NCBI GenBank assembly: GCA_018831195.1
Contig: JAHJDP010000032.1
Coordinates: forward strand, 159,094 to 223,093
DNA length: 64,000 nucleotides
DNA from: Candidatus Eiseniibacteriota bacterium
Lineage (GTDB): Bacteria > Eisenbacteria > RBG-16-71-46 > CAIMUX01 > JAHJDP01
Direction: 5' to 3'
Part shown: in pieces, positions 43,642 to 60,907 of the stretch
How positions within the stretch are numbered: the stretch's first letter is position 1
Layout of the letters: the number at the start of each line of letters is the position of its first letter
Program-made: the position numbers and the translations under genes
The notes under the pieces: generated by a model
Told to the model about the DNA's origin: nothing
Databases searched by the model: none
What the model saw: the letters and a program-made list of their open reading frames with translations, nothing else

Positions 43642-43650
43642 GGATGAAAG

Positions 43651-45726: not shown

Positions 45727-46530
45727 ATGAGGGGCGCGATGCCGTGGCATGACCTGTTTGGCTCAGGGCGCTTTCCGTCGGCGCAATGGATGTTGGGTCT
45801 TCTCGTCATCCTGATCCCAATTTTAACAAGTTGTGGTGGCGGAACAGACATCCCGCCGCCGGGGTTGAATGTTCAGATTCCGGATGAGGGATCTGGTGCA
45901 CCGCCTTCATATTTCAGTGACTATGTTCTTCAGGCGGATGATGAGATCACTGTCAGAGTCCTGGCCAACCCTGAAATGAATGCAACGGTACCGATCCGTC
46001 CTGATGGAACGGTATCGATTCCCGGCGCTGGAGTGATCAATGCGGGGGGTATGACCCCGTCCCAATTGGCCGATGTCATTGAGACCCGTCTTGGACAGCT
46101 CATCCGCCAACCGCAGGTGGATGTTCTCGTAACGGAGTTACGACCGCGGGGGATCTATGTGATGGGTGAAGTTGAGGCGCCGGGAGAGAGGGTTTATCGG
46201 CCGGGGATGTCCGTTCTGCAGGCCTTGGGCGCCGCAGGCGGCGCCTTGAGAAGCGGCAAGCTTTCGAGTGTTCTGCTGATGCGCCGGGTGGGTCCTGAAG
46301 ATGTCGAAGTCCGGCGGGTTGATATCGAAGCCATCTTCGAACGCACGGAAGGGGCCGTCGATCCACTGTTGGCGCCGAACGATATCGTGTTTGTCCCAAA
46401 GACCTGGATCTCCCGCTGGGGGCAATTCGTCGACGAGTATATAAGACCGACGATTCAACCATTTGCGCTCTATGTTCAAGCCTGGTGGGCTATGAATCTA
46501 ACGAGCGACAGCGTCAACGTGACATTCTAA
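45727..46530 (+). CDS. polysaccharide export lipoprotein (Wza/GumB/EpsE-like; Poly_export plus SLBB domain)
   Basis: Lipobox (ILTSCGG). DYVLQADDEITVRV…PDGTVSIPGAGVINAGGMTPSQLADVIETRL…IYVMGEV is typical of the polysaccharide export N-terminal domain. Confidence 0.75.
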   Translation: MRGAMPWHDLFGSGRFPSAQWMLGLLVILIPILTSCGGGTDIPPPGLNVQIPDEGSGAPPSYFSDYVLQADDEITVRVLANPEMNATVPIRPDGTVSIPGAGVINAGGMTPSQLADVIETRLGQLIRQPQVDVLVTELRPRGIYVMGEVEAPGERVYRPGMSVLQALGAAGGALRSGKLSSVLLMRRVGPEDVEVRRVDIEAIFERTEGAVDPLLAPNDIVFVPKTWISRWGQFVDEYIRPTIQPFALYVQAWWAMNLTSDSVNVTF

Positions 46531-46576
46531 CAGTCTGGGGCGAACAAGATGAAGCCTATGGGATGAGGACAGCTTC

Positions 46577-47998
46577 GTGACACCACAGCAACTGGAACAT
46601 GAGAGCGAAACTAACGGCTACGATGAACCGCCCGAACCTGTAGAACGCCGGCGGACCTCGATGCGTGATTTCATCTCGGTGATTTTCCGCCGGAAGGGAA
46701 TCGTTATCGTCATTATAGTGATCGCCATTATCGCTGTATTGATTCTGAACGCCACATCACCCACGACTTTCCAATCGCATTCATCCCTGCTTGTCAGCCG
46801 CGGACATCCACAGTCGGTCTTTTCCACCGGTTACCAGATTCTTTCGTGGGAAGAAGAGTTGAATTCAGAAGTGGAAATTATAAAGAGCCAGCAAATTCAC
46901 CAATTGGCTCAGGACTATATTGAGGATTGGGGATTACGAAAAAACAACGGTGAGCCAATAAAGATCGATCCCCTCCAGATCCGTGCGACCACACCCGGCA
47001 AGAGCAGCGTTATTAATATCGCCTATAGATCGCATGCCCAGGAAGAAACGCAGCATGTCGCGCAGGCCCTGGCACAGGCCTATATTGATTTTAGGCATCA
47101 GACCCGCGGGGGACCGGAGGTTGAATCCTATTTCCAGCAGCAGCTCGAACAATTAGAGGATCGCCTCGGTGACTGGGAACAACGCCGGGCCGATTATATG
47201 ACCGAAGAAGCGGTGACGTCTCCCAAAGACGAGAGGTATTTCCTTCTCCAGGAACGTAGAGACGCCCAGGCCGAATTGGCTCGGATTCAGTCAAACATTA
47301 CGGAACGGCAGGCCCAGATTGAATCGATACGCCGGCTCCAGGAGGAGCGGCGGAATCAACCTGATCTGCAGATTATGCCTTTCTCGAATCCTACGACCAA
47401 CGAAGAATCGATCCTGGATATGCTCATGAAGGAGCTGACACTCCGCCGGAGTGAATATTATTCATCTGCCGCACGCTATACGGAAAACCATCCGGATGTT
47501 CAAAATAAGCGGCGGCATGTCCTTGAACTCGAGTCAGCTCTAGACAGGGAGCTTAATAATTATCTGCGGCATCTCGAGGCGCGAATCGAGGTCATGCTCG
47601 CCCAAGAGGCGAATCAAACTCAGGTTCTTGAAGCCTTGTCGGCGGAGTTGGCCGAGATTCCATCGAAGGAGATGCGTTTGGGGCAGATTGATCGCGTACT
47701 CGCTGCGATGACGACGCAATACAATGCCCTTGTACAAAGTAGTGTTGATGCAAGAATCAAGAAGACAGGATCAGCCGATTGGAACGTCATTCTTCTCACG
47801 CCGGCTTCTGAATCGATTCCGATCCTCGTGACCGACTATGTCCGTCTGGCGATTCTCCCGCTTTTTAGTATTATCCTTGGAATCGGGATGGCTTTCCTCG
47901 TGGACGGGCTGGATCACTCGATTAAGGATGCGGGAGACGTGGAGGCCTATATCGGTCTTCCCGTGCTTGCATCGGTGAGCCCGTTCGGGGGCCGGTAA
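46577..47998 (+). CDS. polysaccharide copolymerase / chain-length determinant (Wzz/GumC-like, no kinase domain)
   Basis: An N-terminal TM helix (IVIVIIVIAIIAVLIL) and a C-terminal TM helix (LAILPLFSIILGIGMAFLV) flank a long coiled-coil periplasmic domain. GTG start. Confidence 0.7.
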   Translation: MTPQQLEHESETNGYDEPPEPVERRRTSMRDFISVIFRRKGIVIVIIVIAIIAVLILNATSPTTFQSHSSLLVSRGHPQSVFSTGYQILSWEEELNSEVEIIKSQQIHQLAQDYIEDWGLRKNNGEPIKIDPLQIRATTPGKSSVINIAYRSHAQEETQHVAQALAQAYIDFRHQTRGGPEVESYFQQQLEQLEDRLGDWEQRRADYMTEEAVTSPKDERYFLLQERRDAQAELARIQSNITERQAQIESIRRLQEERRNQPDLQIMPFSNPTTNEESILDMLMKELTLRRSEYYSSAARYTENHPDVQNKRRHVLELESALDRELNNYLRHLEARIEVMLAQEANQTQVLEALSAELAEIPSKEMRLGQIDRVLAAMTTQYNALVQSSVDARIKKTGSADWNVILLTPASESIPILVTDYVRLAILPLFSIILGIGMAFLVDGLDHSIKDAGDVEAYIGLPVLASVSPFGGR

Positions 47999-48001
47999 AC
48001 C

Positions 48002-48868
48002 GTGGCCGTCTATGAAACATTCTACGGGTTGACGGAAAACCCATTTAACATTACTCCAGATCCCCGCTTTCTGTTTTTGACTCCTTCGCACCGCGCCGCG
48101 TTGAACTACCTTGAGTACGGTGTTGAGGAGCGCAAGGGATTTCTTGTTGTTACGGGAGAGGTCGGTGTGGGCAAAACCCTGCTGATCAGGACACTGCTTC
48201 AACGGGTTGATTCCCGAACCGAAACCGCCTTGGTTATGAATGCCCGCTTAACATTTAAGGAGCTCATGATCCTCGCTGTCCGTGATTGGAATCTCCCTGT
48301 GCAGGGACAGACAAAATTGGATTTATTGATCGCCCTTCAAGAATATCTCGTCGATGTGAAAAATCACGGCGGGAATGTTCTGTTGATCATTGATGAGGCG
48401 CAAAACCTATCGGCCGAGTCTTTGGAGGAATTCCGGCTGCTCAGCAATATGGAAACGAGCACGCAGAAACTGCTGCAGATTGTTCTGGCAGGGCAGCCTG
48501 AATTGAAAGTGATCTTGAACCAGCACGGCCTTCGGCAGCTGCGTCAAAGAATCCCGGGAATCTGTGATATTAAAAGTCTCGACCCGGATGATGTCGGTGA
48601 TTATGTGAGGCATCGGCAGAGTGTCGCGGGTCTATGTGCGCCCAATGATTGGATTTTTGACGAAGCTGCCATCGACGAGATCTATCGCAACACCGAGGGT
48701 ATCCCGCGATCGATCAATCAATTATGCGATCGTGCCCTCCTCTTGGGATATCAACGGAACATGAAGGTTTTGGGATCCCGGGAAATTATCGACGCGATGG
48801 ATGCCTTGAAGTCCGGGGATGTTCATTGGACTCCCGCGCGGCGGGGCGGCAAAGGGTTCATCGAATGA
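48002..48868 (+). CDS. ExeA/GspA-like AAA ATPase (PEP-CTERM-locus 'secretion ATPase' type)
   Basis: Walker A GEVGVGKTLL and Walker B/DEAQ box LLIIDEAQNL, with ExeA-like overall similarity. GTG start overlaps the upstream stop. Confidence 0.7.
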   Translation: MAVYETFYGLTENPFNITPDPRFLFLTPSHRAALNYLEYGVEERKGFLVVTGEVGVGKTLLIRTLLQRVDSRTETALVMNARLTFKELMILAVRDWNLPVQGQTKLDLLIALQEYLVDVKNHGGNVLLIIDEAQNLSAESLEEFRLLSNMETSTQKLLQIVLAGQPELKVILNQHGLRQLRQRIPGICDIKSLDPDDVGDYVRHRQSVAGLCAPNDWIFDEAAIDEIYRNTEGIPRSINQLCDRALLLGYQRNMKVLGSREIIDAMDALKSGDVHWTPARRGGKGFIE

Positions 48869-49602
48869 GCCGGATCCATGACAGTCTCACAGGACCAAGA
48901 TCAGGTGATCCCAGGGGTCCGGGTCCCTTTCAAACAATCCATACGATTGAAACCGGAATGGACAAGGTTCCGGATTTTCGCCTGCTGCATGAAATGGAGC
49001 AGCTTCAGGCGGCCCTTGGTGTCGCGATGGCGCCAGAAAGCAGGCGCGTTCTCGCCTTTCTGGGCGCTGTTGTCGGTGAAGGTGTTACGACCCTGGCTCT
49101 TCACTACTCGCTCTATCTGGCCCGATCGGCCGATCACAATGTTCTGCTGGTCGACTCCGATCTCGCTCACTCCAGCTATAGTCTGAGCGACGGCGTAGGC
49201 AAAAACCCGGGTCTTGCAGATATACTTCGTGGGGAGGTGGAACCCGGCAACGCCGTTTTGGGAACAGAAGAACCGAAGCTGCACTTTCTTTGTTCAGGCA
49301 ATGATATTGCAGGGCATACCGATCTTTTGAATTCACCTCGTTTTGGAATGCTGATGGCGGATCTTGGACGACGTTATCATACCGTTGTTCTCGACGGTCC
49401 ACCGGTGCTCGCCCATCCTGAATCGACGATCATTGGAGCAGCCGTAGATGGAGTCATTTTTGTCATCCAGCACCGGCGCACACGGAGAGAAGTTATACAA
49501 AAGGCGATCCATACCTTGAGGGGGGCGAAGTGCCAGCTCCTTGGCACGGTTCTCAACAGAAGAGTGCACGATATCCCCAACTTCATCTATCAGAGGATTT
49601 AA
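48865..49602 (+). CDS. BY-kinase (CapB/Wzc C-terminal domain)-like protein with a degenerate Walker A, a candidate pseudokinase
   Basis: FLGAVVGEGVTTLALHYSLYLA…LLVDSDLA…VVLDGPPV aligns with BY-kinase Walker A, A' and B motifs. However the invariant P-loop Lys is replaced by Val (GEGVTT, codon GTT), and there is no C-terminal Tyr cluster. ATGA overlap with the ATPase gene. Confidence 0.65.
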   Translation: MSRIHDSLTGPRSGDPRGPGPFQTIHTIETGMDKVPDFRLLHEMEQLQAALGVAMAPESRRVLAFLGAVVGEGVTTLALHYSLYLARSADHNVLLVDSDLAHSSYSLSDGVGKNPGLADILRGEVEPGNAVLGTEEPKLHFLCSGNDIAGHTDLLNSPRFGMLMADLGRRYHTVVLDGPPVLAHPESTIIGAAVDGVIFVIQHRRTRREVIQKAIHTLRGAKCQLLGTVLNRRVHDIPNFIYQRI

Positions 49603-49608: not shown

Positions 49609-50868
49609 GTGGCCGGAAGGATGAAGGACACAATGAACCGGCCAGATCACTTTGAACTGCCCGCCGTTCCCTTTGCGCAGCATCCGGAATTCGAAAGGGC
49701 CCTTCGGCGGCTAATGGAATGGACGATCCCGGCCCTCCTGAAGAGGAGTTCCGAAGTCCTGCCACAAGCGCTCTTCCTTTCCGGCACGGCCGCCTGGGGT
49801 GAGATGTCGGGCGTGCCGTGTTCCAACGGCCTATGGCTCCCTCTTTCCGATATCGATCTCTCCCTGGTCGTGAAACACCGGACCCCTGAATTGAAGGGTA
49901 TTCTCGAACACGATCTGCAACAGAACTTCAGAGAGAGGGGAAGGGCCACGGGCCTTAGCGCCTCTCCCGTCACTATTGGCACCTACGATATAAAAAAGCT
50001 TCGCCTTCAAGCCCCGACACTTGGCGTTGCGGAGATGCGACGGGCCGGGTGCTGTCTCTGGGGCGATGCTAAGCTCCTGTACCGCTTCCCCGACCCTGAA
50101 AGGGATGGACTGCGCCGCTGGGAGATCATCCGCCTGCTTTTTAACCGTTCTATGGAATTGGTGGAAGCCTGTGCCGCCGCGGATAAGGCCGCGGCGACAG
50201 GCGACGAGGAAGCGGCCTGGAAGCGTGGGTATCTGACCGCGAAGATGAGTTCTGATCTCGGAACCATTTTATTGGCCATGGAGGGGCGTTTGCTCTGGGG
50301 GATGGCGAACCGGCTATCTGTTTTGGATGACTGGGTTTCAGAAGGTCTGCTGCCGAAGGCGCTTGGTGATTTTCTAAAAGAATCGGTGCGATGTCGGCAA
50401 GATCCAACCTCCCTGCAACCGGAGAGAAAGACATCCTGGGATAGATTGGAACCCCTTGCGGACATGCTGGGCTGGTTGCATTGGACCTGGGATCGGATTT
50501 TGGATAAGTATAATCTGACAGAGCGCCCCTTCCCGCATACGGTCCTCCGGTGGGAGGAAGGCGGTCTTAGGGATCGCTTCCGGCAATTGCGCCAAATTCT
50601 GACGACTCCCCAGGAAAGGGGAAAGCTTCGCAGCTTGGCGAACTGGTGGGGAATGCGTCCGGCGGCTTGCTTCCGAAGCTCTTTGGGCTCGACTTGTCTC
50701 ATGTATCTTCTCCTACTGGACCCGGGGAGGGAGCAGTGGAGCCTCTCCGCCCGCGAGCACCTGGGCGGGCTTTCCCCCTGGGTGGACGGAAGAAGTAGAG
50801 AGGCGCCGCGTTCCGCGCTTCAAGAGCTGGGGCGATGGATAGTCTGGATGCGGGGGATTGAAGGTTAA
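49609..50868 (+). CDS. hypothetical protein with a minimal nucleotidyltransferase-fold signature
   Basis: LSGTAAWGEMSG…LSDIDLSLVV fits the h[GS]x(n)DhDh pattern of Pol-beta-type nucleotidyltransferases. Trp-rich C-terminal half. The start is uncertain: GTG at 49609, or ATG at 49621 or 49633. Confidence 0.4.
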   Translation: MAGRMKDTMNRPDHFELPAVPFAQHPEFERALRRLMEWTIPALLKRSSEVLPQALFLSGTAAWGEMSGVPCSNGLWLPLSDIDLSLVVKHRTPELKGILEHDLQQNFRERGRATGLSASPVTIGTYDIKKLRLQAPTLGVAEMRRAGCCLWGDAKLLYRFPDPERDGLRRWEIIRLLFNRSMELVEACAAADKAAATGDEEAAWKRGYLTAKMSSDLGTILLAMEGRLLWGMANRLSVLDDWVSEGLLPKALGDFLKESVRCRQDPTSLQPERKTSWDRLEPLADMLGWLHWTWDRILDKYNLTERPFPHTVLRWEEGGLRDRFRQLRQILTTPQERGKLRSLANWWGMRPAACFRSSLGSTCLMYLLLLDPGREQWSLSAREHLGGLSPWVDGRSREAPRSALQELGRWIVWMRGIEG

Positions 50869-50890
50869 ACAATATGAGCGAGGAGCGAGT

Positions 50891-52045
50891 GTGAAGGGAG
50901 AACGACTGGTTCTGATTATCCTGATCGACGCATTGGGATATCGGATCGTTAAAGAAACAAAGTTCCTCGATGGATTTGTGAAACCTGCGAATCCCATCCG
51001 GACCATTTTCGGCTATTCAAGCGCGGCGATCCCCAGCCTGTTGACCGGCGCCCTCCCGGAAGCCCACGGCCACTTTTCCATGTATCTCCGTGACCCGGAA
51101 AACTCCCCGTTGAAAAAAGACCGGTGGATAATCCGCCTTTTCGGCGAATGGATGAAGAGACCCTGGTTCCTCAAAAAAAGACTGACGCCGCGCCTGATCC
51201 GTCGGGGGATTACCGGTTATTTCAGTCTCTACGAAATTCCCTCCGAACTTCTGTCGGAATGGGATCTCTGCCAGAAGCGTTCGCTGTTCAAGCCGGGCGG
51301 CATTCCCGGATTTCCAACCGTCATTGATGAATTGGCCGAACGCCGCACGCCACACAGGATTTGGGATTGGAGCGTGCCTGAAGAGCGGGCATTGCCGGAG
51401 CTGCGCCGCGAGGTTTCCCAGGGAAAACTGCCATTCCTCTTTTTCTATACGCCGGGATTGGACAGTATTATGCACATGTATGGGACGCGGACTGAAGTTG
51501 TACAAAAAGCGCTTCGGAATTGGGATACAACGATTCGTGAACTCGTTGCGGAGGGGGAGAAGCATTACCGCGAAGTTCGTCTCTTTGTGTTCGGCGATCA
51601 CGGGATGGCGGATGTAGCTGACGCCCATGATTTGTGGGCTCGATTGCCGGTGATCGGGCCGCCAAAGAAACGGGGGACGCTCTACTTCCTCGATTCCACC
51701 ATGGCTCGGTTTTGGTTTGACTCTGATGCCGAGAGACGGCGGACGGTGGAAATCCTTTCAGAAGAAGGGTTCGGGCGCTGCCTATCCATCGAGGAGGAAA
51801 AGTCTCTGGGGGTTCATTTTCCCGACGGCCGGTATGGGGAGTTGACCTATTTGGCCGATGCGGGGCAACTCATCGTGCCCAGTTTCATGGGCTGGGAGAA
51901 GATCGCGGGAATGCACGGGTATCATCCGGATGATGTCGATTCGGATACGACCCTGCTGACGAATACAAATGTGGACCATCCGGCGGATATTCGGGGATTT
52001 TCCGACCTGTTGAAGAGAGAGGCGCTGGCCTTCTCAAGGGGATAG
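50891..52045 (+). CDS. alkaline-phosphatase-superfamily protein (type I phosphodiesterase / nucleotide pyrophosphatase-like)
   Basis: LVLIILIDALGY…SSAAIPSLLTGALPEAHGH…VFGDHGM are core metal-ligand motifs of the AlkP superfamily. GTG at 50891 follows GAGGAG. No TM segment. Confidence 0.65.
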   Translation: MKGERLVLIILIDALGYRIVKETKFLDGFVKPANPIRTIFGYSSAAIPSLLTGALPEAHGHFSMYLRDPENSPLKKDRWIIRLFGEWMKRPWFLKKRLTPRLIRRGITGYFSLYEIPSELLSEWDLCQKRSLFKPGGIPGFPTVIDELAERRTPHRIWDWSVPEERALPELRREVSQGKLPFLFFYTPGLDSIMHMYGTRTEVVQKALRNWDTTIRELVAEGEKHYREVRLFVFGDHGMADVADAHDLWARLPVIGPPKKRGTLYFLDSTMARFWFDSDAERRRTVEILSEEGFGRCLSIEEEKSLGVHFPDGRYGELTYLADAGQLIVPSFMGWEKIAGMHGYHPDDVDSDTTLLTNTNVDHPADIRGFSDLLKREALAFSRG

Positions 52046-52050
52046 GATTG

Positions 52051-53064
52051 ATGAAACGGAAACTCCTCTTCGGATCTATATTAAGCCTTCTCTTTCTATA
52101 TTTGGCCTTCCGCAAATCGGACTTTGCCCAGATCATTGAGCATATCCGAAACACGCGCATGATCTATCTCCTCCCGGGAGTCATCCTGACACTTCTCAGT
52201 TATTTTGTTCGAGCCGTCAGGTGGCGTTATCTCCTGGCTTCGGTGAAAACCATTTCATTAAGTCCTCTCTTTAAATCCACCATGATCGGTTTCATGGCCA
52301 ACAACCTCCTTCCGGCGCGACTGGGGGAGCTGGTGAGGGCGCATACCATCGGGACATGGGAGGGCATCTCCCGATCTTCGGCCCTGGCGACCATCGCCAT
52401 GGAACGTGTCTTTGATCTCTATACCATGTTGGTGCTTTTCGGCGTGATATCGATCTTTCTCCCATTGACGCCGGCGGTCCAGAAATTGGGCATGATCGGC
52501 CTGCTCTTCGGCCTCCTTGTTCTGGGTCTCTTTATCCTGCTGCTGCGCGCCGGTCCCAAGACGATCCAGCTTTTTGGCCGGTATATCCCCTCCCGATTCA
52601 GGGAACGCGGAATCGGTCTTCTCTGTGCTTTTCAGGAGGGTCTAGGAGTCCTCAAAAAGGGACGACAATTACTATGGGCCTCCATGTTATCGGTGCTGAT
52701 GTGGGGGTTCATCGTCGGTGTCATCTATCTTTGTTTCACGGCAACCGAGATAGAGGTTGATGGGAAACCCTTGCCGGTATCAGCGGCGGTGGTCGTCCTG
52801 GTTGTCATGGCGATCGGACTAATGGTGCCCTCGGGCCCTGGATTTATCGGATCTCTTCAGCTAGCAGCGAAACTCGGTCTCAGGGTTTTTGGAGTGGAGG
52901 ACAATATGGCGCTATCCTTCGCCATCGTCTATCACGCCACTCAATGGGTTCCGGTCACTTTGGTCGGGCTGATATTTCTCATCCATGCGAATCTCTCGCT
53001 CAAAGAGATCAGCCGGACATCGACCGGTGATAAGGGTCGCGATCCGACGGGGGCCGGGTTATGA
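52051..53064 (+). CDS. UPF0104 / lysylphosphatidylglycerol-synthase-TM-region family membrane protein (flippase-like)
   Basis: Multi-TM protein with RAVRWRYLL…MIGFMANNLLPARLGELVRAH, typical of the UPF0104 family. Confidence 0.6.
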   Translation: MKRKLLFGSILSLLFLYLAFRKSDFAQIIEHIRNTRMIYLLPGVILTLLSYFVRAVRWRYLLASVKTISLSPLFKSTMIGFMANNLLPARLGELVRAHTIGTWEGISRSSALATIAMERVFDLYTMLVLFGVISIFLPLTPAVQKLGMIGLLFGLLVLGLFILLLRAGPKTIQLFGRYIPSRFRERGIGLLCAFQEGLGVLKKGRQLLWASMLSVLMWGFIVGVIYLCFTATEIEVDGKPLPVSAAVVVLVVMAIGLMVPSGPGFIGSLQLAAKLGLRVFGVEDNMALSFAIVYHATQWVPVTLVGLIFLIHANLSLKEISRTSTGDKGRDPTGAGL

Positions 53065-54554
53065 ACCGGCTCGCACGCCCGGCTCCATTCCGACAGCGCG
53101 TGAGGAGGTTATTCTTTCCACCCGGCCCGCCCCAGCGGTTTCAAGAGCTTATTATTTCGCGCGGCGTGGTCATTCTCGCGGCCGCGGTCGTCGGGTTGAT
53201 TCTCGGTATCCAATGGTTTCAAGTTAATCCCCGTATTGTCAAAACACTTATCGGATTAATAGTCTTCTTTGTTTTTGTACGTTTCCCCGTCTATATGGGT
53301 GTCGGCGCTTTCCTATTGCTATATCCATATCCTACCGCTATCGCGTTGGGAAATACGAACTTTGTATTTGCTATTCTCTTTACCATGGTTTGGATTGTAA
53401 AAGTTGGTTTGGGATTGGAGCCGCGACCGCAGGGATCCCTTGTCGGCAAACCCATCTTTTTTCTTTTGGTGGCGCATGCCCTGTCGCTGATCGTGCTGCC
53501 TGAGTGGATGGATTTCAAAGAGACCTTTGCGTTTCAACAATTCCTGCTGGCCGCCGTGCTGATGTACACGGTGATGACGAATACCGTTACGACGCCGAAG
53601 CGTCTTCACTATATATTTCACATGCTTACTATCGGATCGATTATTGTTAATGTGCAATCGGTTCTTCAGTTTATTGCGCCGACCCTCCGGATTATCCCCG
53701 AATGGTATTATTCCTCCCCGGCTTTGGGCGCGGCGGTGGAGTTCGGAGGGCGTGTCGGTGGTGTTTTTCGTTCGCATCCTCTTCTGGCGGACTCGGCGGC
53801 GATGATGATCCTGCTGCAGCTCTTTATGGCCAGCCGCTGCGCCGGCAAACCATGGCAGCGTCTGTACCATTTTGGCGTCATCGGCCTGGCCATCATCACC
53901 CTTTTCATCACGGTGAACCGCGGAGGAATGGTCATTCTTGTGCTGGGATTGGCTATCATCGGATGGCACCTGCGCCGGGAACTGAAGTTCTCGCGGATCG
54001 CCATTGCCGCATCGGCGCTGGTGCTTGTCTTTATCATTGCGGAAGCGGTGACCAGCGGCCGGTATGAGCAGGAAGTCACCATGTTTTCCCGTCTTGCCGG
54101 CACCCGCTTTGAGTCGTTAATGCCTGAAAACAGAGCCGTCGTCTGGATCGCCTACTGGGCCTGGATTCTCGAATCTCCGTTTATCGGACATGGGCCCCGG
54201 ATCGATACCACCGTCCTTGGATTCTGGCCTCACAACGCCTATCTCTTTTATGCCTACACGGTCGGTTTCCTGGGAATGTCCATATTTCTTTTTATCATTC
54301 TGAAGAGCATTATAAAAACTCGACCCCGGGGCAGGGTCTCATGGACCAGGGGGTCATATGTCAAAGGAGCTTTACTCCTGGTTCATGTGATGCTTATCCA
54401 ATTTGCCGTCGGTCAGCTCCGAACCGACCACCAGCGAGGAAATGTTTTTATCTACTTGACCTACAGTCTGTTAGCGCAGGCCTCGATTGTCTATCGTCTT
54501 TCTGAAAAGGAAGACAAGCGTCGGCGCTCATTGACACGTAACCGCCAGGTATGA
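53061..54554 (+). CDS. O-antigen ligase / Wzy-type polymerase family membrane protein
   Basis: About 12 TM helices. The Wzy_C-like motif FIGHGP…HNAYLFYAYTVGFLG matches H-N-x-Y-L…G-x-x-G. ATGA overlap with the upstream gene. Confidence 0.65.
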   Translation: MNRLARPAPFRQRVRRLFFPPGPPQRFQELIISRGVVILAAAVVGLILGIQWFQVNPRIVKTLIGLIVFFVFVRFPVYMGVGAFLLLYPYPTAIALGNTNFVFAILFTMVWIVKVGLGLEPRPQGSLVGKPIFFLLVAHALSLIVLPEWMDFKETFAFQQFLLAAVLMYTVMTNTVTTPKRLHYIFHMLTIGSIIVNVQSVLQFIAPTLRIIPEWYYSSPALGAAVEFGGRVGGVFRSHPLLADSAAMMILLQLFMASRCAGKPWQRLYHFGVIGLAIITLFITVNRGGMVILVLGLAIIGWHLRRELKFSRIAIAASALVLVFIIAEAVTSGRYEQEVTMFSRLAGTRFESLMPENRAVVWIAYWAWILESPFIGHGPRIDTTVLGFWPHNAYLFYAYTVGFLGMSIFLFIILKSIIKTRPRGRVSWTRGSYVKGALLLVHVMLIQFAVGQLRTDHQRGNVFIYLTYSLLAQASIVYRLSEKEDKRRRSLTRNRQV

Positions 54555-54572
54555 TATGATTTTAGACGGATC

Positions 54573-54603: not shown

Positions 54604-54641
54604 GGACAAGGAGGTATGGACGCGACTCGTTGCTAATGAGG

Positions 54642-54672: not shown

Positions 54673-54986
54673 ATGAAGTATGGAAGTGACCGGGGCGTTG
54701 AAAACGAACGACCCCTGGACGGGTAGGAACAGCAACGAGCCCTCATGTGGCGGCACGTCCGGTTCGCCTGGGGGATACATCAAGGGTTTACCCTGTGGAC
54801 AAGATGACTCCGGCGGAAACGGGCATGGAAAATATCTCTACGGAGAGGGCTTCCCGACCTCCCCGAATAAAGTCCTCGAAGAACGGAACAGCACGCCCCG
54901 CGAAGAAGGTTCCGCGGGATGCATTGTCTGTTCCCTGTTCTATTCCCAAACCACGCCGGGCGAAATCGTGGCATCGCCGCTGTTAT

Positions 54987-55583
54987 ATGGCATTCGGCAA
55001 ACGCCTCTTTGATCTCGTCATTACTATACCCGCCATTATCATCCTCCTTCCCCTCTTTCTTGTTCTCGCCATTCTCATCCGGGTCGATACGCCGGGCCCT
55101 GTGATCTACACAAGCCGCAGGGTTGGAGAGGGAGGAAGGATCTTCAACTTCTTCAAGTTTCGCTCAATGGTTGTCGGCGCGGAAGGTTATCGAGATCGAC
55201 TTCAAGAGCTCAATGAGGTGGATGGCCCCGTTTTCAAGATCGCCAATGATCCCCGCACGACCCGTTTCGGCCGCTTTCTCAGGCGCACCAGCTTAGATGA
55301 GCTGCCCCAGATGTTCAATGTCCTGCTGGGCGATATGACCCTCGTAGGCCCGCGTCCACCTATTCCGGATGAAGTTGTTCAGTATTTGCCCTGGCAGCGG
55401 GCCCGGCTCAGTGTCAGGCCGGGTATAACCTGTCTCTGGCAAATCAGTGGAAGGAGCCAATTGGGTTTTGATGAGTGGATGCGTCTGGATCTGAAGTATG
55501 TAGAAGGGATCAGCCTCGGGTTGGATATAAAGATCCTTCTCCAAACCATACCAGCCGTTCTCTCGAGAGAAGGCGCCTACTGA
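54987..55583 (+). CDS. polyprenyl-phosphate sugar phosphotransferase (bacterial sugar transferase, WbaP/EpsL C-terminal domain type)
   Basis: MAFGKRLFDLVITIPAIIILLPLF…RVGEGGRIFNFFKFRSM…DELPQMFNVLLGDMTLVGPRP are family-defining motifs. I chose the ATG at 54987; the upstream ORF extension has no homology. Confidence 0.85.
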   Translation: MAFGKRLFDLVITIPAIIILLPLFLVLAILIRVDTPGPVIYTSRRVGEGGRIFNFFKFRSMVVGAEGYRDRLQELNEVDGPVFKIANDPRTTRFGRFLRRTSLDELPQMFNVLLGDMTLVGPRPPIPDEVVQYLPWQRARLSVRPGITCLWQISGRSQLGFDEWMRLDLKYVEGISLGLDIKILLQTIPAVLSREGAY

Positions 55584-55678
55584 TTTTCGAGGTGGTTTGG
55601 ACGGATTGGAGAAGCGAATTTGTATATCACGGCAATAATCGCGGCAACGAAGTGAGCCATCAGGGGGAGTCACGTATT

Positions 55679-57232
55679 GTGAGGCGCGGGAAGATTGCTC
55701 ATTCGAACCGGGTATGGGCATGGGCACTCCTACTTTTAATGGCTCTGGGTCTCCGGGTGGCGGGTCTTGGAAGACAATCCCTATGGATCGATGAAGCCTA
55801 CTCTGTGAAGTATGCGCATCTGGGTGGATCGCTGACCTGGGATGACTATTTGGATAACCTGCATGGGCCCCTGCATACCATACTCTTGCACAATTGGTGC
55901 ACTATCGCCGGGGATGGAGAGGCCGCGTTGAGGTGGCCGAGTGTCATGGCCTCAGTTCTAACACTGCCGTTCTTCTGGCGCCTGACACGCCGCCTCATAG
56001 GAGCTAGGGGGGCCTGGGCCGCAACGGCGGCCATAGCGGTTTCTCCCTTTTCCATCTGGTATGCGCAGGAAGTGCGCAATTACAGCCTCTTTCTTCTGAT
56101 GGCCTGTGTTGCCTTGTTGGCATGGTTTCGATCTCTGGATGGGCCGGGGCATATCGGGCGGTGGATTCTGCATGTCCTCCTTCTCTTCGGTGCCTTTCTT
56201 TCCAATCTAGCCAGTCTCTTTATTATCCCGGTGCAACTCATTTGGTTGATTGGACGCCGCCGTTCACACTGGGTGAGCACGCTCTCAGCTTGGGCCGCCG
56301 TGATGCTGCTACTGCTTCCTTGGGAGATTCGTTTCTATAATTACCGGGTTGTCCCCTCCGGCTTGTTGGACAAAACAAAGACGGTCGAGTTGGCCCCGGC
56401 GCGGGAAGAAACATGGGCGAGTTCCTGGAGTATCCCTTTTACCTATTATGCTTTTGCCGGCGGTTATACATTAGGCCCTCCGCTTGAAGAACTGCATGAA
56501 GACCGGATCGGCGCCCTCAAGCATCATATGCCGCTGTTGATAGCGGCCGCCCTTCTTTTTGCGGGCCTTATCGGATGGGGGGTTGTCGGCCGCCGTGAAC
56601 CGAATCGCAAGCAGCGACTTCGCCTCTTAGCCTGGTTGCTCATACCTCCGCTGGGTGTTTGGCTTATTTCTCTTCTCAATCTGAAAGCGATGAATCCTCG
56701 CTACGCTCTGGTCGCCTATCCGGCATTTCTTGTTCTTCTCGCCGCCGGTTGGATAAGCATGAAGCGAAGAGGTGTGCGGATCGCTGCCGCGATCGCAGTG
56801 CTGGCGATCTGGGGATTGTGCTGGGGACGAGTTCAGTGGGATGAAGCCTATGCGAAAGAGGATTACCGTTCCATTTCCGGTTGGATGAGGGAACAGCTTG
56901 ATGCGGAAGTATTATGGATCACCATTGGTGTCGATGACCCGCTGCGGATCTATTACCTTCGTGATTGTTTTAACGGGATGGATTTGAAGGTTGGAACATA
57001 CCGCCGCCTGACATCGTATCCGCCTTCACATTGGGAACGGTTTTGGAATGAGACGGAAGAACTCGCTTCGGAACATCGAAGAATTCTACTCTTTGAATCG
57101 CGGACATGGCACCTTGATCCCGATGGCCGGGGTCCCGGATTGCTAAGAAAATATTGTTCAAATCCGGAGACCATCAACCGCCACGGCATCCGTGTCTTGA
57201 AATGTGAAAGAGGGGAGAACACCGATGACTAG
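55679..57232 (+). CDS. GT-C-fold glycosyltransferase family 39-like (ArnT/PMT-like) membrane protein
   Basis: GTG at 55679 is 9 nt after GGGGGAG. N-terminal multi-TM region with LWIDEAYSVKYA… (the DE motif in the first periplasmic loop), then a large C-terminal soluble domain. Confidence 0.6.
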   Translation: MRRGKIAHSNRVWAWALLLLMALGLRVAGLGRQSLWIDEAYSVKYAHLGGSLTWDDYLDNLHGPLHTILLHNWCTIAGDGEAALRWPSVMASVLTLPFFWRLTRRLIGARGAWAATAAIAVSPFSIWYAQEVRNYSLFLLMACVALLAWFRSLDGPGHIGRWILHVLLLFGAFLSNLASLFIIPVQLIWLIGRRRSHWVSTLSAWAAVMLLLLPWEIRFYNYRVVPSGLLDKTKTVELAPAREETWASSWSIPFTYYAFAGGYTLGPPLEELHEDRIGALKHHMPLLIAAALLFAGLIGWGVVGRREPNRKQRLRLLAWLLIPPLGVWLISLLNLKAMNPRYALVAYPAFLVLLAAGWISMKRRGVRIAAAIAVLAIWGLCWGRVQWDEAYAKEDYRSISGWMREQLDAEVLWITIGVDDPLRIYYLRDCFNGMDLKVGTYRRLTSYPPSHWERFWNETEELASEHRRILLFESRTWHLDPDGRGPGLLRKYCSNPETINRHGIRVLKCERGENTDD

Positions 57233-58367
57233 AGGCCGGGTCGTTCTCTTCTCCAATGCCCCCTATTTTGGCGGGGCCGAAGGGTATTTGGTCTATCTGG
57301 CGCAGGGTTTAAAACCTCTTGGGTGGGACCCGATCGGTCTGGTTCCCGAGGGATCGTGTGGAGCGGTGCTTGCGGGCCGCTTTGAAAAGGCCGGCTTTCC
57401 CGTCGAAAAATTCAATCACCGGCACTGGACATCTCCGGCCGGCGCCTGCGACATCCTCAAAAAGTTAAAGCAGATCGATGGCGAGATATTGCATCTTAAT
57501 CTTCCCTCGCCCTATGAGGCGCTGCGGAATACCGTCGCCTTTTGGGGGCGGCTGGCGGGTTATCGACGCGTTGTCGCAACAGAACACCTTCCGATGTCTT
57601 TGCGGGCCCGGAGGCGGGCCTTGCTCAAAATCCTGCTGGCTCCAGCCATTGATGCCTTTATTATTATGACGCGATCGGGCGCGGAAGATTTGCATCGGAT
57701 TCATGGTATCGGTCAGGATAAAATTGTACGCATTCCATATGGGATTGATCCGGCGCCGGAGGTTGCTCCGGCCGGCCGCCGCGACCTGCTTGAAGGATTG
57801 AAACTTCCACCGGAAACGCGCCTTGTCGGCCATGTCGGCCGTCTTACCGCGCGGAAGGGGCACCGCATTCTGCTGGAGGCGCTGGCACAAGAGAAAGAGA
57901 TGCTTCGGGATCGCCGGACCGCTGTTCTATTCATCGGTGAGGGAGAAGAAGAAGAAAATCTGCGGCGATGCTCCGAGACACTCGTGCTGAATGAGTTTGT
58001 ACATTTTATGGGCCATCGCGAGAATGCCCGGAATCTTATCGGTTTGCTGGATCTTCTCGTGCTACCCTCCTTTGTTGAAACACAGCCCTTTGTCATCCTC
58101 GAGGCCATGGCCGCCGGAATTCCGGTTCTCTCGACGATGGTCTATGGGATTCCCGATATGGTTGTCCACGAGGTCACGGGGCTTCTGGTCGAGCCGGGAG
58201 CGATCGGCCCGCTCGGGGCCGCGCTCAAGCGCCTTCTCCTCGAGGATGAGACCCGAATCAAGATGGGGCGATCCGGTTTGGAACGATTCAATGAGCTTTT
58301 TCGGATGGATAGGATGGCGGAGAAGACGGAGAGGGTCTATGCCGCCCAAAATGGGGTTGGGCTTTGA
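57225..58367 (+). CDS. GT4-family glycosyltransferase
   Basis: GT-B fold with the C-terminal EX7E-type motif region (…FVETQPFVILEAMAAGIPVL…). The ATG at 57225 follows a GGGGAG Shine-Dalgarno and overlaps the upstream stop by 8 nt. Confidence 0.8.
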   Translation: MTRGRVVLFSNAPYFGGAEGYLVYLAQGLKPLGWDPIGLVPEGSCGAVLAGRFEKAGFPVEKFNHRHWTSPAGACDILKKLKQIDGEILHLNLPSPYEALRNTVAFWGRLAGYRRVVATEHLPMSLRARRRALLKILLAPAIDAFIIMTRSGAEDLHRIHGIGQDKIVRIPYGIDPAPEVAPAGRRDLLEGLKLPPETRLVGHVGRLTARKGHRILLEALAQEKEMLRDRRTAVLFIGEGEEEENLRRCSETLVLNEFVHFMGHRENARNLIGLLDLLVLPSFVETQPFVILEAMAAGIPVLSTMVYGIPDMVVHEVTGLLVEPGAIGPLGAALKRLLLEDETRIKMGRSGLERFNELFRMDRMAEKTERVYAAQNGVGL

Positions 58368-59593
58368 ACATATTGCTAATCAACAAGTTCCATTATGCAA
58401 AAGGTGGAGCCGAGCGGTATTACCTCGATATTTCCCGGCTTCTCAGGGAGGCGGGCCACCAGGTTGGGCATCTCTCCATGGCCCATCCGCGCAATGTCCC
58501 TGCCACCGAAGCCGATGCTTTTGTGGAGGAGGTCGATTATCACAAGTCGATGGGTGGGCTGGGTAAGTTGAAGGCGGCCTCCCGGGTTCTTTACAACCGG
58601 GAGAGTGTGAGGCGGGTTCGAGAGCTGGTTAGGGCTCGGAGACCGCATGTAGCCCACCACCAGAATATCTATCACCAGATTTCTTTATCCGTCGTGAGGG
58701 AGTTGGCAAGATGTGATGTTCCTATGGTCATGACATTGCATGACTACAAGCCGGTCTGCCCCGCCTATCTGTTGATGGTAGGGGGGGAGATCTGTGAGCG
58801 GTGCCGGAAGGGCCGTTTCTATCATGCCGCCATGAACACTTGCATCCTCAATTCCAGACCCGCCAGTATCCTGGGCAGCCTGGAGGCTTACCTGCATACT
58901 CTCTGGGGCACTTATGATCAGATCGCCCTCTATCTCTGCCCCAGCCGTTTCCTTGTGGATAAAGTCGGTGAAATGAGCCAAAGGCCGATCAAACTCCGGC
59001 ATCTTCCGAATTTTCTTCCGACCGATGATTTCAAGCCGGTCTACGAGGGTGACCCGGTTGTGGTGTATGCTGGAAGACTGTCGCGTGAAAAAGGACTACC
59101 GACCCTCATTGAGGCCGCGCGGCGGCAGAATGTCGGCCGGGGATGGAAGCTTCGGATTCTGGGTGAGGGCCCGCTTCGCGCGGAGTTAGAGGCAAAGGTC
59201 ACCGAATGGGGCTTGGAGGACGGGATCCGATTTGAAGGATTCTGTTCGGGTGAAGATTTAAAAGAGGTGATTCAAAGCGCCAGCGTGGTGGTGGTTCCAT
59301 CGGAATGGTACGAGAATCAGCCCTATGCCATTCTCGAGGCCTTCGCGCTGGGAAAACCAGTGATCGGAAGTTCCATCGGAGGTATCCCGGAGCTGGTTCG
59401 TGCCGATCGGACAGGATGGACGTTCCCGCCAGGGGATGCTGATGGCCTGGGCATGGCGATGCGCGAGGCTCTGGATCATCCGGAGCAAACCCGCGAAATG
59501 GGGCGGGAGGCGAGACGATTGGTGGAGAAGGATCATAATCCCGCACTGCATATGGAAAGGCTGTTAAACATTTATGAAGAGGTTTCCTCATGA
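58364..59593 (+). CDS. GT4-family glycosyltransferase
   Basis: MNILLINKFHYAKGGAE…SEWYENQPYAILEAFALGKPVI is GT4-like. TTG start overlaps the upstream stop. Confidence 0.8.
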   Translation: MNILLINKFHYAKGGAERYYLDISRLLREAGHQVGHLSMAHPRNVPATEADAFVEEVDYHKSMGGLGKLKAASRVLYNRESVRRVRELVRARRPHVAHHQNIYHQISLSVVRELARCDVPMVMTLHDYKPVCPAYLLMVGGEICERCRKGRFYHAAMNTCILNSRPASILGSLEAYLHTLWGTYDQIALYLCPSRFLVDKVGEMSQRPIKLRHLPNFLPTDDFKPVYEGDPVVVYAGRLSREKGLPTLIEAARRQNVGRGWKLRILGEGPLRAELEAKVTEWGLEDGIRFEGFCSGEDLKEVIQSASVVVVPSEWYENQPYAILEAFALGKPVIGSSIGGIPELVRADRTGWTFPPGDADGLGMAMREALDHPEQTREMGREARRLVEKDHNPALHMERLLNIYEEVSS

Positions 59594-60879: not shown

Positions 60880-60907
60880 CATCCCGCAAGAGACAAGGCC
60901 GCCCCAC

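Follow-up and report, generated by a model that had tools for sequence, protein, structure and literature searches.

A nucleotidyltransferase and a soluble AlkP-superfamily enzyme recur together in bacterial polysaccharide loci and are followed by a UPF0104 membrane protein in Eisenbacteria

Introduction

Do neighbouring genes of a surface-polysaccharide locus act as one unit, and what might they do to the glycan? This question is raised by a 64-kb stretch of DNA from a Candidatus Eisenbacteria MAG, called the window here. In this window, three tightly packed plus-strand genes are found with export genes on one side and a Wzy_C gene on the other. A preliminary description had taken them for a single cassette that decorates the polysaccharide with a non-sugar substituent. 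According to our best reading, the trio instead consists of two separate layers: an old and widespread enzyme pair, comprising a nucleotidyltransferase (NTase) and a soluble enzyme of the alkaline-phosphatase superfamily (AlkP), and a lineage-specific membrane protein of the UPF0104 group.

Results

Genomic context of the three genes

The trio sits in a single operon-like block within a surface-polysaccharide locus of the Wzy type, and this locus is conserved throughout the phylum. The three open reading frames were found on the plus strand at the positions given in the preliminary description (49609-50868, 50858-52045 and 52048-53064), which was also right about the flanks, with Poly_export, Wzz, AAA_22 and AAA_31 genes upstream and Wzy_C downstream. 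The features of the locus are as follows.

45727-46530, + strand: Poly_export/Wza, export and chain-length context (whole block 45727..48868)
46577-47998, + strand: Wzz-like, context
48002-48868, + strand: AAA_22 ATPase, resembling the XrtA/PEP-CTERM-associated ATPase (TIGR03015, 283 bits, cut-off 324.5)
48865..49602, + strand: tyrosine-autokinase-like protein (AAA_31/TIGR03018-like), maximal ORF from 48724, directly upstream of the NTase gene
49633..50868, + strand: ANT(3'')(9)/AadA-like Pol-beta nucleotidyltransferase (NTase), maximal ORF 49609-50868 (GTG)
50891..52045, + strand: NPP-type AlkP enzyme (PF01663), maximal ORF 50858-52045 (TTG)
52051..53064, + strand: UPF0104/LPG_synthase_TM/PplT membrane protein, maximal ORF 52048-53064
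53061..54554, + strand: Wzy_C-family polymerase or ligase (PF04932, 42.4 bits), context
54747..62513, + strand: assembly genes of the same locus, including a Bac_transf priming transferase and three GT4 glycosyltransferases
55475-57232, + strand: PMT_2 GT-C enzyme, assembly gene of the same locus
61428-62513, + strand: ManC-type mannose-1-phosphate guanylyltransferase, assembly gene of the same locus

All three trio genes share the codon-position GC pattern GC1>GC2<GC3 (~0.6/0.4-0.49/0.63) and homologues of each were found elsewhere, so that they represent genes and not chance open reading frames. Three of the four antisense ORFs overlapping the trio lack this pattern, and an independent homologue was found for none of the four. 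The tyrosine-autokinase-like protein has a degenerate Walker A motif, GEGVTT, in which the Lys is missing, and lacks a Tyr cluster at its C-terminus; its homologues in syntenic loci comprise 240-254 aa. Overall, the locus resembles XrtA/PEP-CTERM loci, with all markers in the window scoring below their NCBIfam cut-offs (TIGR03015, 283 against 324.5; TIGR03027, 113 against 180; TIGR03018, 100 against 230.65; TIGR03007, 85 against 278.85). TIGR03006 exceeded its cut-off in a related locus (L091), and no exosortase was found among the larger window ORFs scanned.

The first gene encodes a nucleotidyltransferase

The likely start of the NTase gene is the ATG at 49633, with AAGGA located 6 nt upstream, yielding a protein of 411 aa that is identical to the NCBI protein KJ970_06845. 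The window protein matched no model in Pfam or NCBIfam, including NTP_transf_2 (PF01909) and Polbeta (PF18765), and its family is without a model in either database; PF01909 and PF18765 gave weak matches in two of the 120 family members each (best E 1e-4 and 2.6e-3, respectively). The minimal nucleotidyltransferase signature and fold proposed earlier were both recovered. The sequence LSGTAAWGE...LSDIDL conforms to the hG[GS] and [DE]h[DE]h pattern and its key positions are near-invariant in the family (G51, 119/120; S/T52, 113/120; D73, 120/120; D/E75, 119/120), and the protein has the alpha-beta-alpha-beta-alpha-beta minimal fold. The NTase domain is followed by a HEPN-like helical domain and a helical C-terminal extension of ~170 aa. 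As noticed before, the C-terminal half is rich in Trp, containing 13 of the 19 Trp residues (6.3% vs 1.2% in neighbouring proteins). Several basic residues are also near-invariant (R172 and K/R204 in 120/120 members, R227 in 116/120), and judged by their conservation, the catalytic and basic residues together fit an NTP and an anionic substrate.

By a clear margin, the best structural match was a small-molecule sugar-modifying ANT, and the closest structural relatives nucleotidylate sugar or protein hydroxyls, not phosphate acceptors. The enzymes ANT(3'')(9)/AadA and AAD(9) (PDB 7uy4, 5g4a, 6sxj) share 13-14% identity with the NTase at a profile E of ~0.02, with the AadA profile match (E 0.023) covering the NTase motif region only. 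Pro112 aligns with the catalytic base E87 of AadA and the base would therefore have to lie elsewhere; further conserved acidic residues are E57 (114/120), E/D134 (111/120) and E/D164 (117/120). Lacking this base as well as sequence-level homology that includes the DUF4111-type helical domain, the NTase is not a member of the ANT(3'')(9)/AadA family, from which it also differs by its additional Trp-rich region. Unlike ANT enzymes, it is encoded in polysaccharide loci beside AlkP and GT2 genes and not in a resistance context. Compared to MNT/HEPN minimal nucleotidyltransferases and the protein AMPylators DrrA and GlnE, the NTase combines both domains in one chain and shows a synteny with polysaccharide genes that is conserved across phyla. 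In contrast to the MNT/HEPN systems, the Rx4-6H motif is absent from its HEPN-like domain and it does not occur in a toxin-antitoxin or defence context.

The second gene encodes a soluble NPP-like enzyme

The likely start of AlkP is the GTG at 50891, preceded by GAGGAG, which results in 384 aa, equal to P0004. The protein matched PF01663 with 59.1 bits (cut-off 23), as did 119/119 homologues, whereas even a weak match to PF00884 was seen in only 4/119. Residues D24, S54, H206, D247, H248 and H353 are invariant in the 119 homologues and D202 is nearly so (at least 90% conserved). They make up the two-metal site (Asp; Asp/His; Asp-His; His) and the Ser/Thr nucleophile of the superfamily, here a Ser. 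A PDB search with the single AlkP sequence returned no match, whereas the family profile matched the bacterial NPP structures 7mw8 and 2gsn (E ~2e-10), in an alignment spanning the DxxxH...GDHG and HGY segments. AlkP thus shares PF01663, the two-metal site and the context of the nucleophile motif with the NPPs (2gsn, 7mw8; ENPP1-7), this motif reading GYSS...P..LTG..P..HG in AlkP and T.TFPNH...TG..PE.HG in NPPs, where the nucleophile is Thr. An insert of ~110 aa, in which the motif GYFSLYEIP is invariant, is specific to AlkP.

Neither a TM segment, a hydrophobic segment nor a signal peptide was detected in AlkP (maximum 19-residue hydropathy 1.23), and the first beta-strand, which bears D24, begins within ~15 residues of the start, as it does in the family consensus. 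Having no signal peptide, the enzyme is predicted to be cytoplasmic, and it is no ecto-NPP, a class that is secreted or extracytoplasmic. While the description of the second gene product as a soluble AlkP enzyme with full metal-binding motifs was correct, the analogy to phosphoglycerol and phosphoethanolamine transferases drawn alongside it has to be given up: without signal peptide or membrane anchor, AlkP cannot work like these periplasmic enzymes. LtaS, OpgB, EptA/MCR-1 and BcsG share the alkaline-phosphatase core and transfer a phospho-substituent to glycans or glycolipids, but they possess N-terminal multi-TM regions, and their catalytic domain, in most cases of PF00884, is extracytoplasmic. 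AlkP has neither of these and belongs to PF01663 instead, which sets it apart from this type of transferase. Members of the superfamily include sulfatases; of sulfotransferases, which had been named as well, we know of none in the AlkP superfamily.

NTase and AlkP are linked across phyla

The linkage of these genes was analysed in a sample of 80 species loci with AlkP, 16 of the Eisenbacteria type and 64 others. An NTase gene was present within 10 kb of AlkP in 52/80 loci from about a dozen phyla, i.e., in all 14 assessable Eisenbacteria-type loci and in 38/64 loci of other phyla (20/27 of those with full flanks). Where both HMM-detected ORFs were measurable, the gap between them was 500 nt or less in 29/51 loci. 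The reverse test gave the same picture, as the distant NTase family members P0186 and P0204 each have a PF01663 gene immediately downstream. AlkP was encountered without NTase in 7/27 full-flank loci outside Eisenbacteria (six Gammaproteobacteria, one Armatimonadota), none of which revealed an NTase motif, and therefore has no strict need for the NTase product.

Single-ORF fusions of GT2 and NTase were found in three lineages, at two Myxococcota loci and one Verrucomicrobiia locus, and adjacency of the two is common in other loci. In several loci the NTase gene is adjoined by a CE4 deacetylase of the kind found in XrtA systems (TIGR03006, 320 bits) or by a uridine kinase (NF004018, 203 bits, cut-off 180), the latter being present in only ~7 loci; a dedicated nucleoside kinase beside the NTase would fit nucleoside release. 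The neighbours of AlkP vary across phyla and include Wzz, Wzx, Wzy_C, GT4 and STAS genes. What is conserved is the combination of NTase and AlkP, frequently joined by a GT2 glycosyltransferase; this uncharacterised enzyme pair occurs in the polysaccharide clusters of roughly a dozen phyla. Both the GT2 fusions and adjacency and the CE4 deacetylase neighbour point to a biosynthetic, not a regulatory, role.

UPF0104 is specific to Eisenbacteria

The third gene, with its likely start at ATG 52051, encodes a polytopic protein of 338 aa with at least six strongly hydrophobic segments. Its assignment to UPF0104 was confirmed by matches to PF03706 (175.4 bits, cut-off 33.4, profile positions 2-302 of 302) and TIGR00374 (91.7 bits, cut-off 43.2). 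The stop codon overlaps the start codon of Wzy_C (ATGA at 53061), and the two genes are translationally coupled through this overlap. The protein is not an MprF, as it matches PF03706 only and has no aminoacyl-PG synthase domain (DUF2156). HpnL is a further relative within the UPF0104/MprF flippase domain group. Like GpgF, the UPF0104 protein is a stand-alone polytopic protein encoded beside glycan-assembly genes; unlike its MprF/PplT relatives, such as GpgF and the AglD C-terminal domain, it is found in a Wzy-type polysaccharide locus without Wzx. In the gpgSDF glycolipid operon, a UPF0104 gene is predicted to encode the flippase (PMC12713373), and PplT domains have been reported in fusion with glycosyltransferase and O-antigen-ligase domains (bioRxiv 10.1101/2022.03.11.483950). 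Given the position of the gene and the literature on MprF, we infer a putative lipid-flippase role.

UPF0104 was present in 16/16 Eisenbacteria-type loci, in all of which it directly follows AlkP, and in 0/64 other AlkP loci when searched to E<=0.1. The expected co-occurrence of the trio hence holds for every assessable Eisenbacteria-type locus and fails elsewhere. As one conserved cassette the trio could not be upheld, with UPF0104 being lineage-limited and AlkP occurring without NTase in a gammaproteobacterial group. The distribution of Wzx was the inverse: considering full-flank loci only, it was detected in 1/11 Eisenbacteria-type vs 23/27 other loci (Fisher p = 2e-5, phylogeny ignored), a contrast that goes back to essentially one evolutionary event. 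In the whole 64-kb window, the Wzx HMM found no Wzx-like ORF. Two sister loci (L077, L078) show the order NTase-AlkP-Wzx, while L023 has the order AlkP-Wzx-UPF0104-Wzy_C and could represent an intermediate state; since it contains both genes, the two need not be equivalent. Wzx and UPF0104 occupy the same gene slot, after AlkP and before Wzy_C, and have analogous predicted roles, but show no sequence relationship. UPF0104 is specific to Eisenbacteria and may stand in for the Wzx flippase found in other lineages; it is more simply read as the occupant of the Wzx slot than as a member of a trio cassette. An Eisenbacteria Wzx could also be encoded elsewhere in the genome. The PMT_2 enzyme in the window would need a flipped polyprenyl-phosphate sugar, which could be the real cargo of UPF0104; PMT_2 is missing from several loci with UPF0104.

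Discussion

Based on these sequence comparisons, we tentatively favour a cytoplasmic tailoring reaction that proceeds via a nucleotide phosphodiester and involves NTase and AlkP, together with a lineage-specific UPF0104 translocase. NTase and AlkP would act on the cytoplasmic side while the repeat unit is being assembled. Using an NTP, the NTase would form a nucleotidyl phosphodiester, presumably on a hydroxyl group of a sugar in the growing lipid-linked unit, comparable to ANT enzymes acting on aminoglycoside sugars; a phosphorylated substituent would be a less likely acceptor. AlkP, with its Ser nucleophile and two-metal site, could then resolve the diester or pyrophosphate as an NPP-like phosphodiesterase/pyrophosphatase, whereby a phosphate or phosphodiester-linked decoration would stay on the glycan and nucleoside or NMP would be released. 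UPF0104 may translocate the lipid-linked unit across the inner membrane of Eisenbacteria, or else a different lipid-linked intermediate. As a counterpoint, a phosphorylated sugar could be obtained more cheaply with a simple kinase.

The initial proposal of one cassette adding a non-sugar substituent appears unlikely. Here, the NTase would make an NMP or NDP adduct, AlkP would transfer the phospho-substituent like GPI-phosphoethanolamine transferases or LicD-type enzymes, and UPF0104 would flip the modified lipid-linked intermediate. In its favour, the family PF01663, to which AlkP was assigned, also covers GPI ethanolamine-phosphate transferases, linkage between NTase and AlkP is tight, and the trio does not vary among Eisenbacteria-type loci. 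In some loci, the gene immediately before the NTase encodes a P-loop kinase of the uridine-kinase family, and a route from kinase to NTase to transferase would resemble LicA-LicC-LicD. However, by its score this kinase is a genuine uridine kinase rather than one acting on alcohols or sugars. The window does not encode it, and no biosynthetic genes for a substituent such as choline, ethanolamine, glycerol-phosphate or a phosphonate were found among the larger window ORFs scanned. The proposal is further weakened by the acceptors of the nearest structural relatives of the NTase, which are hydroxyls and not phosphates, by the cytoplasmic location predicted for AlkP, unlike that of the known phospho-substituent transferases of the superfamily, and by the absence of UPF0104 from every one of the 64 AlkP loci of other lineages.

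Less probable still is a regulatory pair that sets polysaccharide output, in which the NTase AMPylates or UMPylates an export or polymerisation protein or makes a nucleotide second messenger, and AlkP takes the mark off again or breaks the messenger down. Such a role would suit the position of the Eisenbacteria NTase directly after the tyrosine-kinase-like gene with its Lys-less Walker A motif, the STAS and RR-PP2C partner-switching regulators that often directly precede AlkP in other phyla, and the finding that no Wzb-type phosphatase motif was detected in ~90 loci; ENPP1-type enzymes moreover hydrolyse cyclic dinucleotides. It is at odds with the sugar-modifying ANT as top structural match, with the biosynthetic GT2 and CE4 partners of the NTase and with a HEPN-like domain devoid of the Rx4-6H motif, nor is there any sign of a receptor or effector domain.

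We consider it improbable that AlkP serves carrier-lipid housekeeping, i.e., that it is a cytoplasmic pyrophosphatase for undecaprenyl-diphosphate or stalled Und-PP intermediates which recycles the carrier of the locus with UPF0104, the latter shifting the lipid between leaflets, and that the NTase is unrelated. NPP enzymes, of which AlkP is a distant relative, are pyrophosphatases, AlkP is a core locus gene even without NTase, UPF0104 comes directly after it in every Eisenbacteria-type locus, and dedicated Und-P translocases have been described in the DedA and DUF368 families. Yet the AlkP loci of all other phyla do without UPF0104, the AlkP family sequence gives no hint of lipid binding, and the strong NTase-AlkP linkage and the GT2-NTase fusions would be left unexplained. 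Equally improbable is that the trio has no joint function and consists of three independent accessory genes that are chance neighbours in a conserved operon: the trio is not kept together outside one phylum and AlkP has many different neighbours, but NTase and AlkP are repeatedly adjacent in about a dozen phyla, starting from either gene, and starts and stops in the window are tightly spaced or overlapping.

Locus organization

The genes encoding the nucleotidyltransferase-like protein (NTase, gene 1), the alkaline-phosphatase-superfamily enzyme (AlkP, gene 2) and the UPF0104 membrane protein (gene 3) are part of a Wzy-type surface-polysaccharide locus, which is placed in a core genome region. 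The gene order from 39.7 to 62.5 kb of the window is as follows:

First block from 39.7 kb, + strand: PNPase, M16 peptidase, dUTPase, DUF3108 protein and an unassigned 322-aa protein, in that order
Next block, directly before the three genes, + strand: Poly_export/Wza, Wzz-like protein, AAA_22 ATPase and AAA_31 tyrosine-kinase-like protein
49633-50868, 50891-52045 and 52051-53064, between the AAA_31 kinase-like gene and Wzy_C, + strand: NTase, AlkP and UPF0104
After the three genes, to 62.5 kb, + strand: Wzy_C, Bac_transf priming transferase, PMT_2 GT-C enzyme, three GT4 glycosyltransferases and ManC

The AAA_22 ATPase scored 283 bits against TIGR03015, the model for the XrtA/PEP-CTERM-associated ATPase (cut-off 324.5). 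Farther upstream lie the housekeeping genes FabF, LptF/G, NusA and IF-2 together with a 2181-aa SprA-like protein.

The three ORFs were found where the preliminary description had located them. Their likely true starts are ATG 49633 for the NTase, GTG 50891 for AlkP, preceded by the ribosome-binding site GAGGAG, and ATG 52051 for UPF0104, whose stop codon overlaps the start of Wzy_C (ATGA). Base composition by codon position is similar in all three genes and coding-like, a pattern absent from three of the four overlapping antisense ORFs.

Throughout the phylum, the locus is always preceded by the same set of genes, encoding PNPase, M16 peptidase, dUTPase, DUF3108 and an unassigned protein of ~320 aa (39678-45557 in the window; likewise in the related loci L004, L006, L016 and L021). 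These constant housekeeping neighbours suggest that the polymer is a core envelope component rather than an accessory exopolysaccharide. Plasmid sequences searched with tblastn gave no match.

The NTase belongs to an apparently undescribed family

Of the 419-aa ORF, 411 aa are identical to the hypothetical protein KJ970_06845 from a Candidatus Eisenbacteria MAG. Searches of gene 1 against Pfam and NCBIfam gave no match. The G-[ST]...D-I-D signature and the Trp-rich C-terminal half noted in the preliminary description are both present, the latter with 13 Trp residues. A word-indexed search retrieved three relatives and a profile nine, and an exhaustive profile search of representative sequences yielded 267 clusters at E<=1e-3, nearly all of them 330-470 aa long. 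Among 147 further matches inspected (101-1892 aa), nearly all carry GSxAxGE...[SG]D[LIVA][DE]. The database protein P0176 (1892 aa), retrieved in the representative search, has 13 separate stretches that match the NTase profile, and the best-scoring one covers the motif region only (profile positions 48-83).

According to a confident AlphaFold model built from a 120-sequence alignment (pLDDT 92.2, pTM 0.92), gene 1 is predicted to consist of a Pol-beta NTase domain, a HEPN-like helical domain resembling that of aminoglycoside adenylyltransferases, and a helical extension of ~170 residues. Conserved positions comprise G51, S/T52, E57, D73, D/E75, E/D134, E/D164, N171, R172, K/R204, R227 and R317, a pattern which fits an active enzyme binding an NTP and an anionic substrate. 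Each Pfam NTase model was touched by only 2 of 120 family members, and the NTase represents an apparently undescribed family of a known superfamily. The idea that it is an inserted MNT-HEPN toxin-antitoxin or defence element was rejected in view of the synteny with polysaccharide genes across phyla and the missing HEPN RNase motif.

AlkP is a conserved, probably cytoplasmic NPP-type enzyme

Gene 2 scored 59 bits against PF01663 and has no hydrophobic segment, in agreement with the preliminary description of a soluble AlkP-superfamily enzyme. Its family is large and well conserved, with a length of ~382 aa and 2855 matches in a word-indexed search; all members match PF01663, and relatives were confirmed in at least 557 of 600 matched genomic stretches. 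Residues D24, S54, H206, D247, H248 and H353 are invariant among 119 homologues. A search of the PDB with a single AlkP sequence gave no match, and the family profile reached bacterial NPP structures at E about 2e-10. As the family starts at the first metal-binding strand and thus lacks a signal peptide, AlkP is predicted from its sequence to be cytoplasmic.

Two other roles were considered for AlkP and rejected. One was that of the Wzb-type phosphatase otherwise lacking as a partner of the tyrosine kinase: the Wzb motif is absent from every locus examined, but the kinase-like protein, with its degenerate Walker A motif and no Tyr cluster, has no obvious need of a phosphatase. A substitute for phosphomannomutase beside ManC is not supported either, since loci that lack ManC conserve the AlkP family just as well.

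NTase and AlkP form a conserved gene pair

Co-occurrence was assessed in 80 species loci found through AlkP, whose ORFs were searched with one HMM per family. Synteny across the phylum extends to the whole locus, and the position between the kinase-like gene and AlkP is invariably taken by a diverged homologue of gene 1 (27-40% identity). An NTase lies <=10 kb from AlkP in all 14 assessable Eisenbacteria-type loci; two of the 16 were left out, one without an upstream flank and one, L017, in which the apparent lack of the NTase is due to a 100-N scaffold gap. In the other phyla, the NTase is present at this distance in 38 of 64 loci, and in 20 of the 27 with both flanks assessable. Carriers of the pair include Krumholzibacteria, Gemmatimonadetes, Sumerlaeota, Acidobacteria, Sericytochromatia, Spirochaetes, Myxococcota, Verrucomicrobia/Kiritimatiellales, Planctomycetota, Cloacimonadota, Nitrospirales, Lentisphaerae and Shewanella benthica KT99.

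Of these full-flank loci, the seven that lack an NTase come from six Gammaproteobacteria and one Armatimonadota, and a search for the NTase motif in these seven found none. AlkP can therefore exist without the NTase. In the reverse direction, PF01663 is the next gene downstream of two distant NTase members, P0186 and P0204, and the NTase was not seen without AlkP.

The preliminary description had proposed that the three genes form a single cassette for a non-sugar modification of the polysaccharide, and had named a failure to co-occur elsewhere as evidence against it. The NTase and AlkP do co-occur, so that for the pair this objection fails, as does the other one named there, that the 419-aa protein is no NTase. 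UPF0104, absent from all 64 loci of other phyla, is a lineage-specific membrane protein, so that the trio is not one cassette but a conserved NTase-AlkP pair plus a companion of one lineage. A rival reading, in which the three genes have no joint function, has this pairing to account for.

UPF0104 as a possible replacement of Wzx

Gene 3 encodes a full-length PF03706/TIGR00374 protein. With dedicated HMMs, UPF0104 was detected in all 16 Eisenbacteria-type loci, and the 64 others gave no match even at E<=0.1. Wzx shows the opposite distribution: among full-flank loci it was found in 1 of 11 of the Eisenbacteria type and in 23 of 27 others (Fisher p = 2e-5, uncorrected for phylogeny), and it is present in most AlkP-containing loci of other phyla. 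An ORF for a Wzx/MOP-family flippase was detected neither anywhere in the 64-kb window nor in 15 of the 16 Eisenbacteria-type loci (L009-L024). The sister loci L077 and L078 share the upstream order Wzz, AAA_22, kinase-like protein, NTase and AlkP, and carry a Polysacc_synt flippase in the slot held by UPF0104 in Eisenbacteria.

In the literature, the UPF0104 domain (PplT) is described as a presumed lipid translocator of wide occurrence, with known fusions to GT-A, GT-B and O-antigen-ligase domains (10.1101/2022.03.11.483950); it forms the C-terminal part of AglD (PMC5898192) and is the flippase predicted for the gpgSDF glycolipid operon (PMC12713373). We favour the reading that UPF0104 translocates the lipid-linked unit in place of Wzx, with the caveats that a Wzx may be encoded elsewhere, that the contrast concerns a single lineage, and that one Eiseniibacteriota chromosome (L023) has both genes in the order AlkP-Wzx-UPF0104-Wzy_C. 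A dedicated flippase for the donor of the GT-C enzyme PMT_2 was rejected, as several UPF0104 loci lack PMT_2.

The PMT_2 gene (GT-C, ArnT/PMT-like) lies at 55475-57232, and a polyprenyl-phosphate-sugar synthase (GT2) is not visible in the window. Only some of the syntenic Eisenbacteria loci contain PMT_2.

A putative tailoring step on the repeat unit

Two further associations bear on the function of the pair. The NTase family is linked to a glycosyltransferase by gene fusion: three loci contain a single ORF for GT2 and NTase, and adjacency of the two genes is common. The fusions (L038:7905-9980, L087:7845-9986 and L066:7797-10019; hosts two Myxococcota MAGs and one Verrucomicrobiia MAG) combine an N-terminal GT2 of ~290 aa with an NTase-like part of ~390 aa. 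The idea of two NTase paralogues was dropped, as the ~290-aa proteins are GT2 by Pfam and are joined to the NTase in genuine fusions. Furthermore, a genuine uridine kinase is encoded in about seven loci (L091, at 1132-1788, L056, L059, L063, L066, L070 and L036), and in L091 and L056 it lies immediately upstream of the NTase; the L091 gene scored 203 bits against NF004018. A nucleoside salvage enzyme is unexpected inside a polysaccharide locus.

We favour the reading that the pair carries out a cytoplasmic tailoring step, i.e., nucleotide-phosphodiester chemistry on the repeat unit, because the nearest structural relatives of the NTase nucleotidylate sugar hydroxyls, three lineages have the NTase fused to a glycosyltransferase, the diesterase/pyrophosphatase site of AlkP is intact, and the NTase was not seen without AlkP. 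Substrates and reaction order are putative. The ANT-like NTase would first O-nucleotidylylate a sugar of the lipid-linked repeat unit, after which the cytoplasmic NPP-like AlkP would "uncover" or transfer the phosphodiester. A phosphate or phosphodiester decoration would stay on the polymer, and the released nucleoside could in some loci be salvaged by the neighbouring uridine kinase, whose presence would fit such a release. In Eisenbacteria, PplT/UPF0104 would have displaced Wzx as repeat-unit flippase.

Rival readings of the pair are the activation of a substituent as an NMP-adduct, as the preliminary description had it, a regulatory pair acting through AMPylation or a second messenger, and the recycling of carrier lipid. 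Taken as a whole, an undescribed multi-phylum glycan modification by NTase and AlkP combined with the displacement of Wzx by PplT/UPF0104 in Eisenbacteria is an improbable proposal. Should the pair act in this way, it would represent a new way of decorating bacterial surface polysaccharides and give a function to two protein families without specific annotation: the NTase family has no Pfam or NCBIfam model, and the AlkP family is named only "alkaline phosphatase family protein". It would also mean that a housekeeping relative of aminoglycoside-resistance adenylyltransferases works on the cell's own glycans, with a bearing on the origin of these resistance enzymes. UPF0104 would be the first PplT-family protein serving a Wzy-dependent pathway, which would give a concrete cargo to a family of presumed flippases that is very widespread.

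The searchable literature contained nothing on the NTase-AlkP gene pair and general background only for UPF0104. All three proteins fall into known superfamilies and therefore nothing is categorically new, but the NTase family, and the conserved pair it forms with a cytoplasmic NPP-like enzyme in polysaccharide loci, appear to be undescribed in Pfam, NCBIfam and the searchable literature. Even if none of the proposed functions were true, a defined new NTase family would be a useful annotation, as would the conserved gene pair as a marker of one class of exopolysaccharide loci. At least 557 species from many phyla have the AlkP gene in their polysaccharide loci, accompanied by the NTase in most sampled loci outside one gammaproteobacterial group.

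Additional features of the loci

The tyrosine-autokinase-like protein directly upstream of the NTase (48724-49602, probable start 48865) has a Walker A motif without Lys (GAVVGEGVTT) and no C-terminal tyrosine cluster. In Wzz/kinase-like proteins of related loci, a strict Walker A pattern gave no match and none had a clear Tyr cluster. The kinase-like proteins of these loci may be non-phosphorylating pseudo-kinases, an assignment which is provisional given the strict regular expression.

Promoter and terminator scans gave site counts not above chance. At 54531-54662, the best sigma-70-like match of the region (11/12, with an extended -10 TG) overlaps the end of Wzy_C, with a terminator-like hairpin after it; the export/tailoring genes may here give way to the Bac_transf/GT genes. 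Farther upstream, the 2181-aa ORF at 24175-30720 has an SprA_N domain (85 bits), is type IX secretion translocon-like and adjoins the LptF/G-type permease genes.

In several loci a CE4 deacetylase lies between or beside the pair, the copy in L091 being of the XrtA-system type (TIGR03006, 320 bits). Besides partner-switching regulators of the STAS and RR-PP2C types adjacent to AlkP, many loci outside Eisenbacteria encode Wzx, Wzy_C and a priming transferase fused to an NTP-transferase-like/LbH domain. In many of the loci L026-L088 (e.g., L036, L042, L048, L056 and L059), genes for an STAS anti-sigma antagonist and for RR-PP2C (RsbU-like) proteins are present, with the STAS gene directly upstream of AlkP or of the fused priming transferase. 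This arrangement resembles that of the regulators SypA and SypE in the Vibrio syp loci. A GH9 glycoside hydrolase with a CelD_N domain is encoded just upstream of STAS-AlkP in L052 (7249-9498), with equivalents in L048, L068 and L076, and in these Sphaerochaeta-type loci it may hint at a beta-glucan-like polymer.
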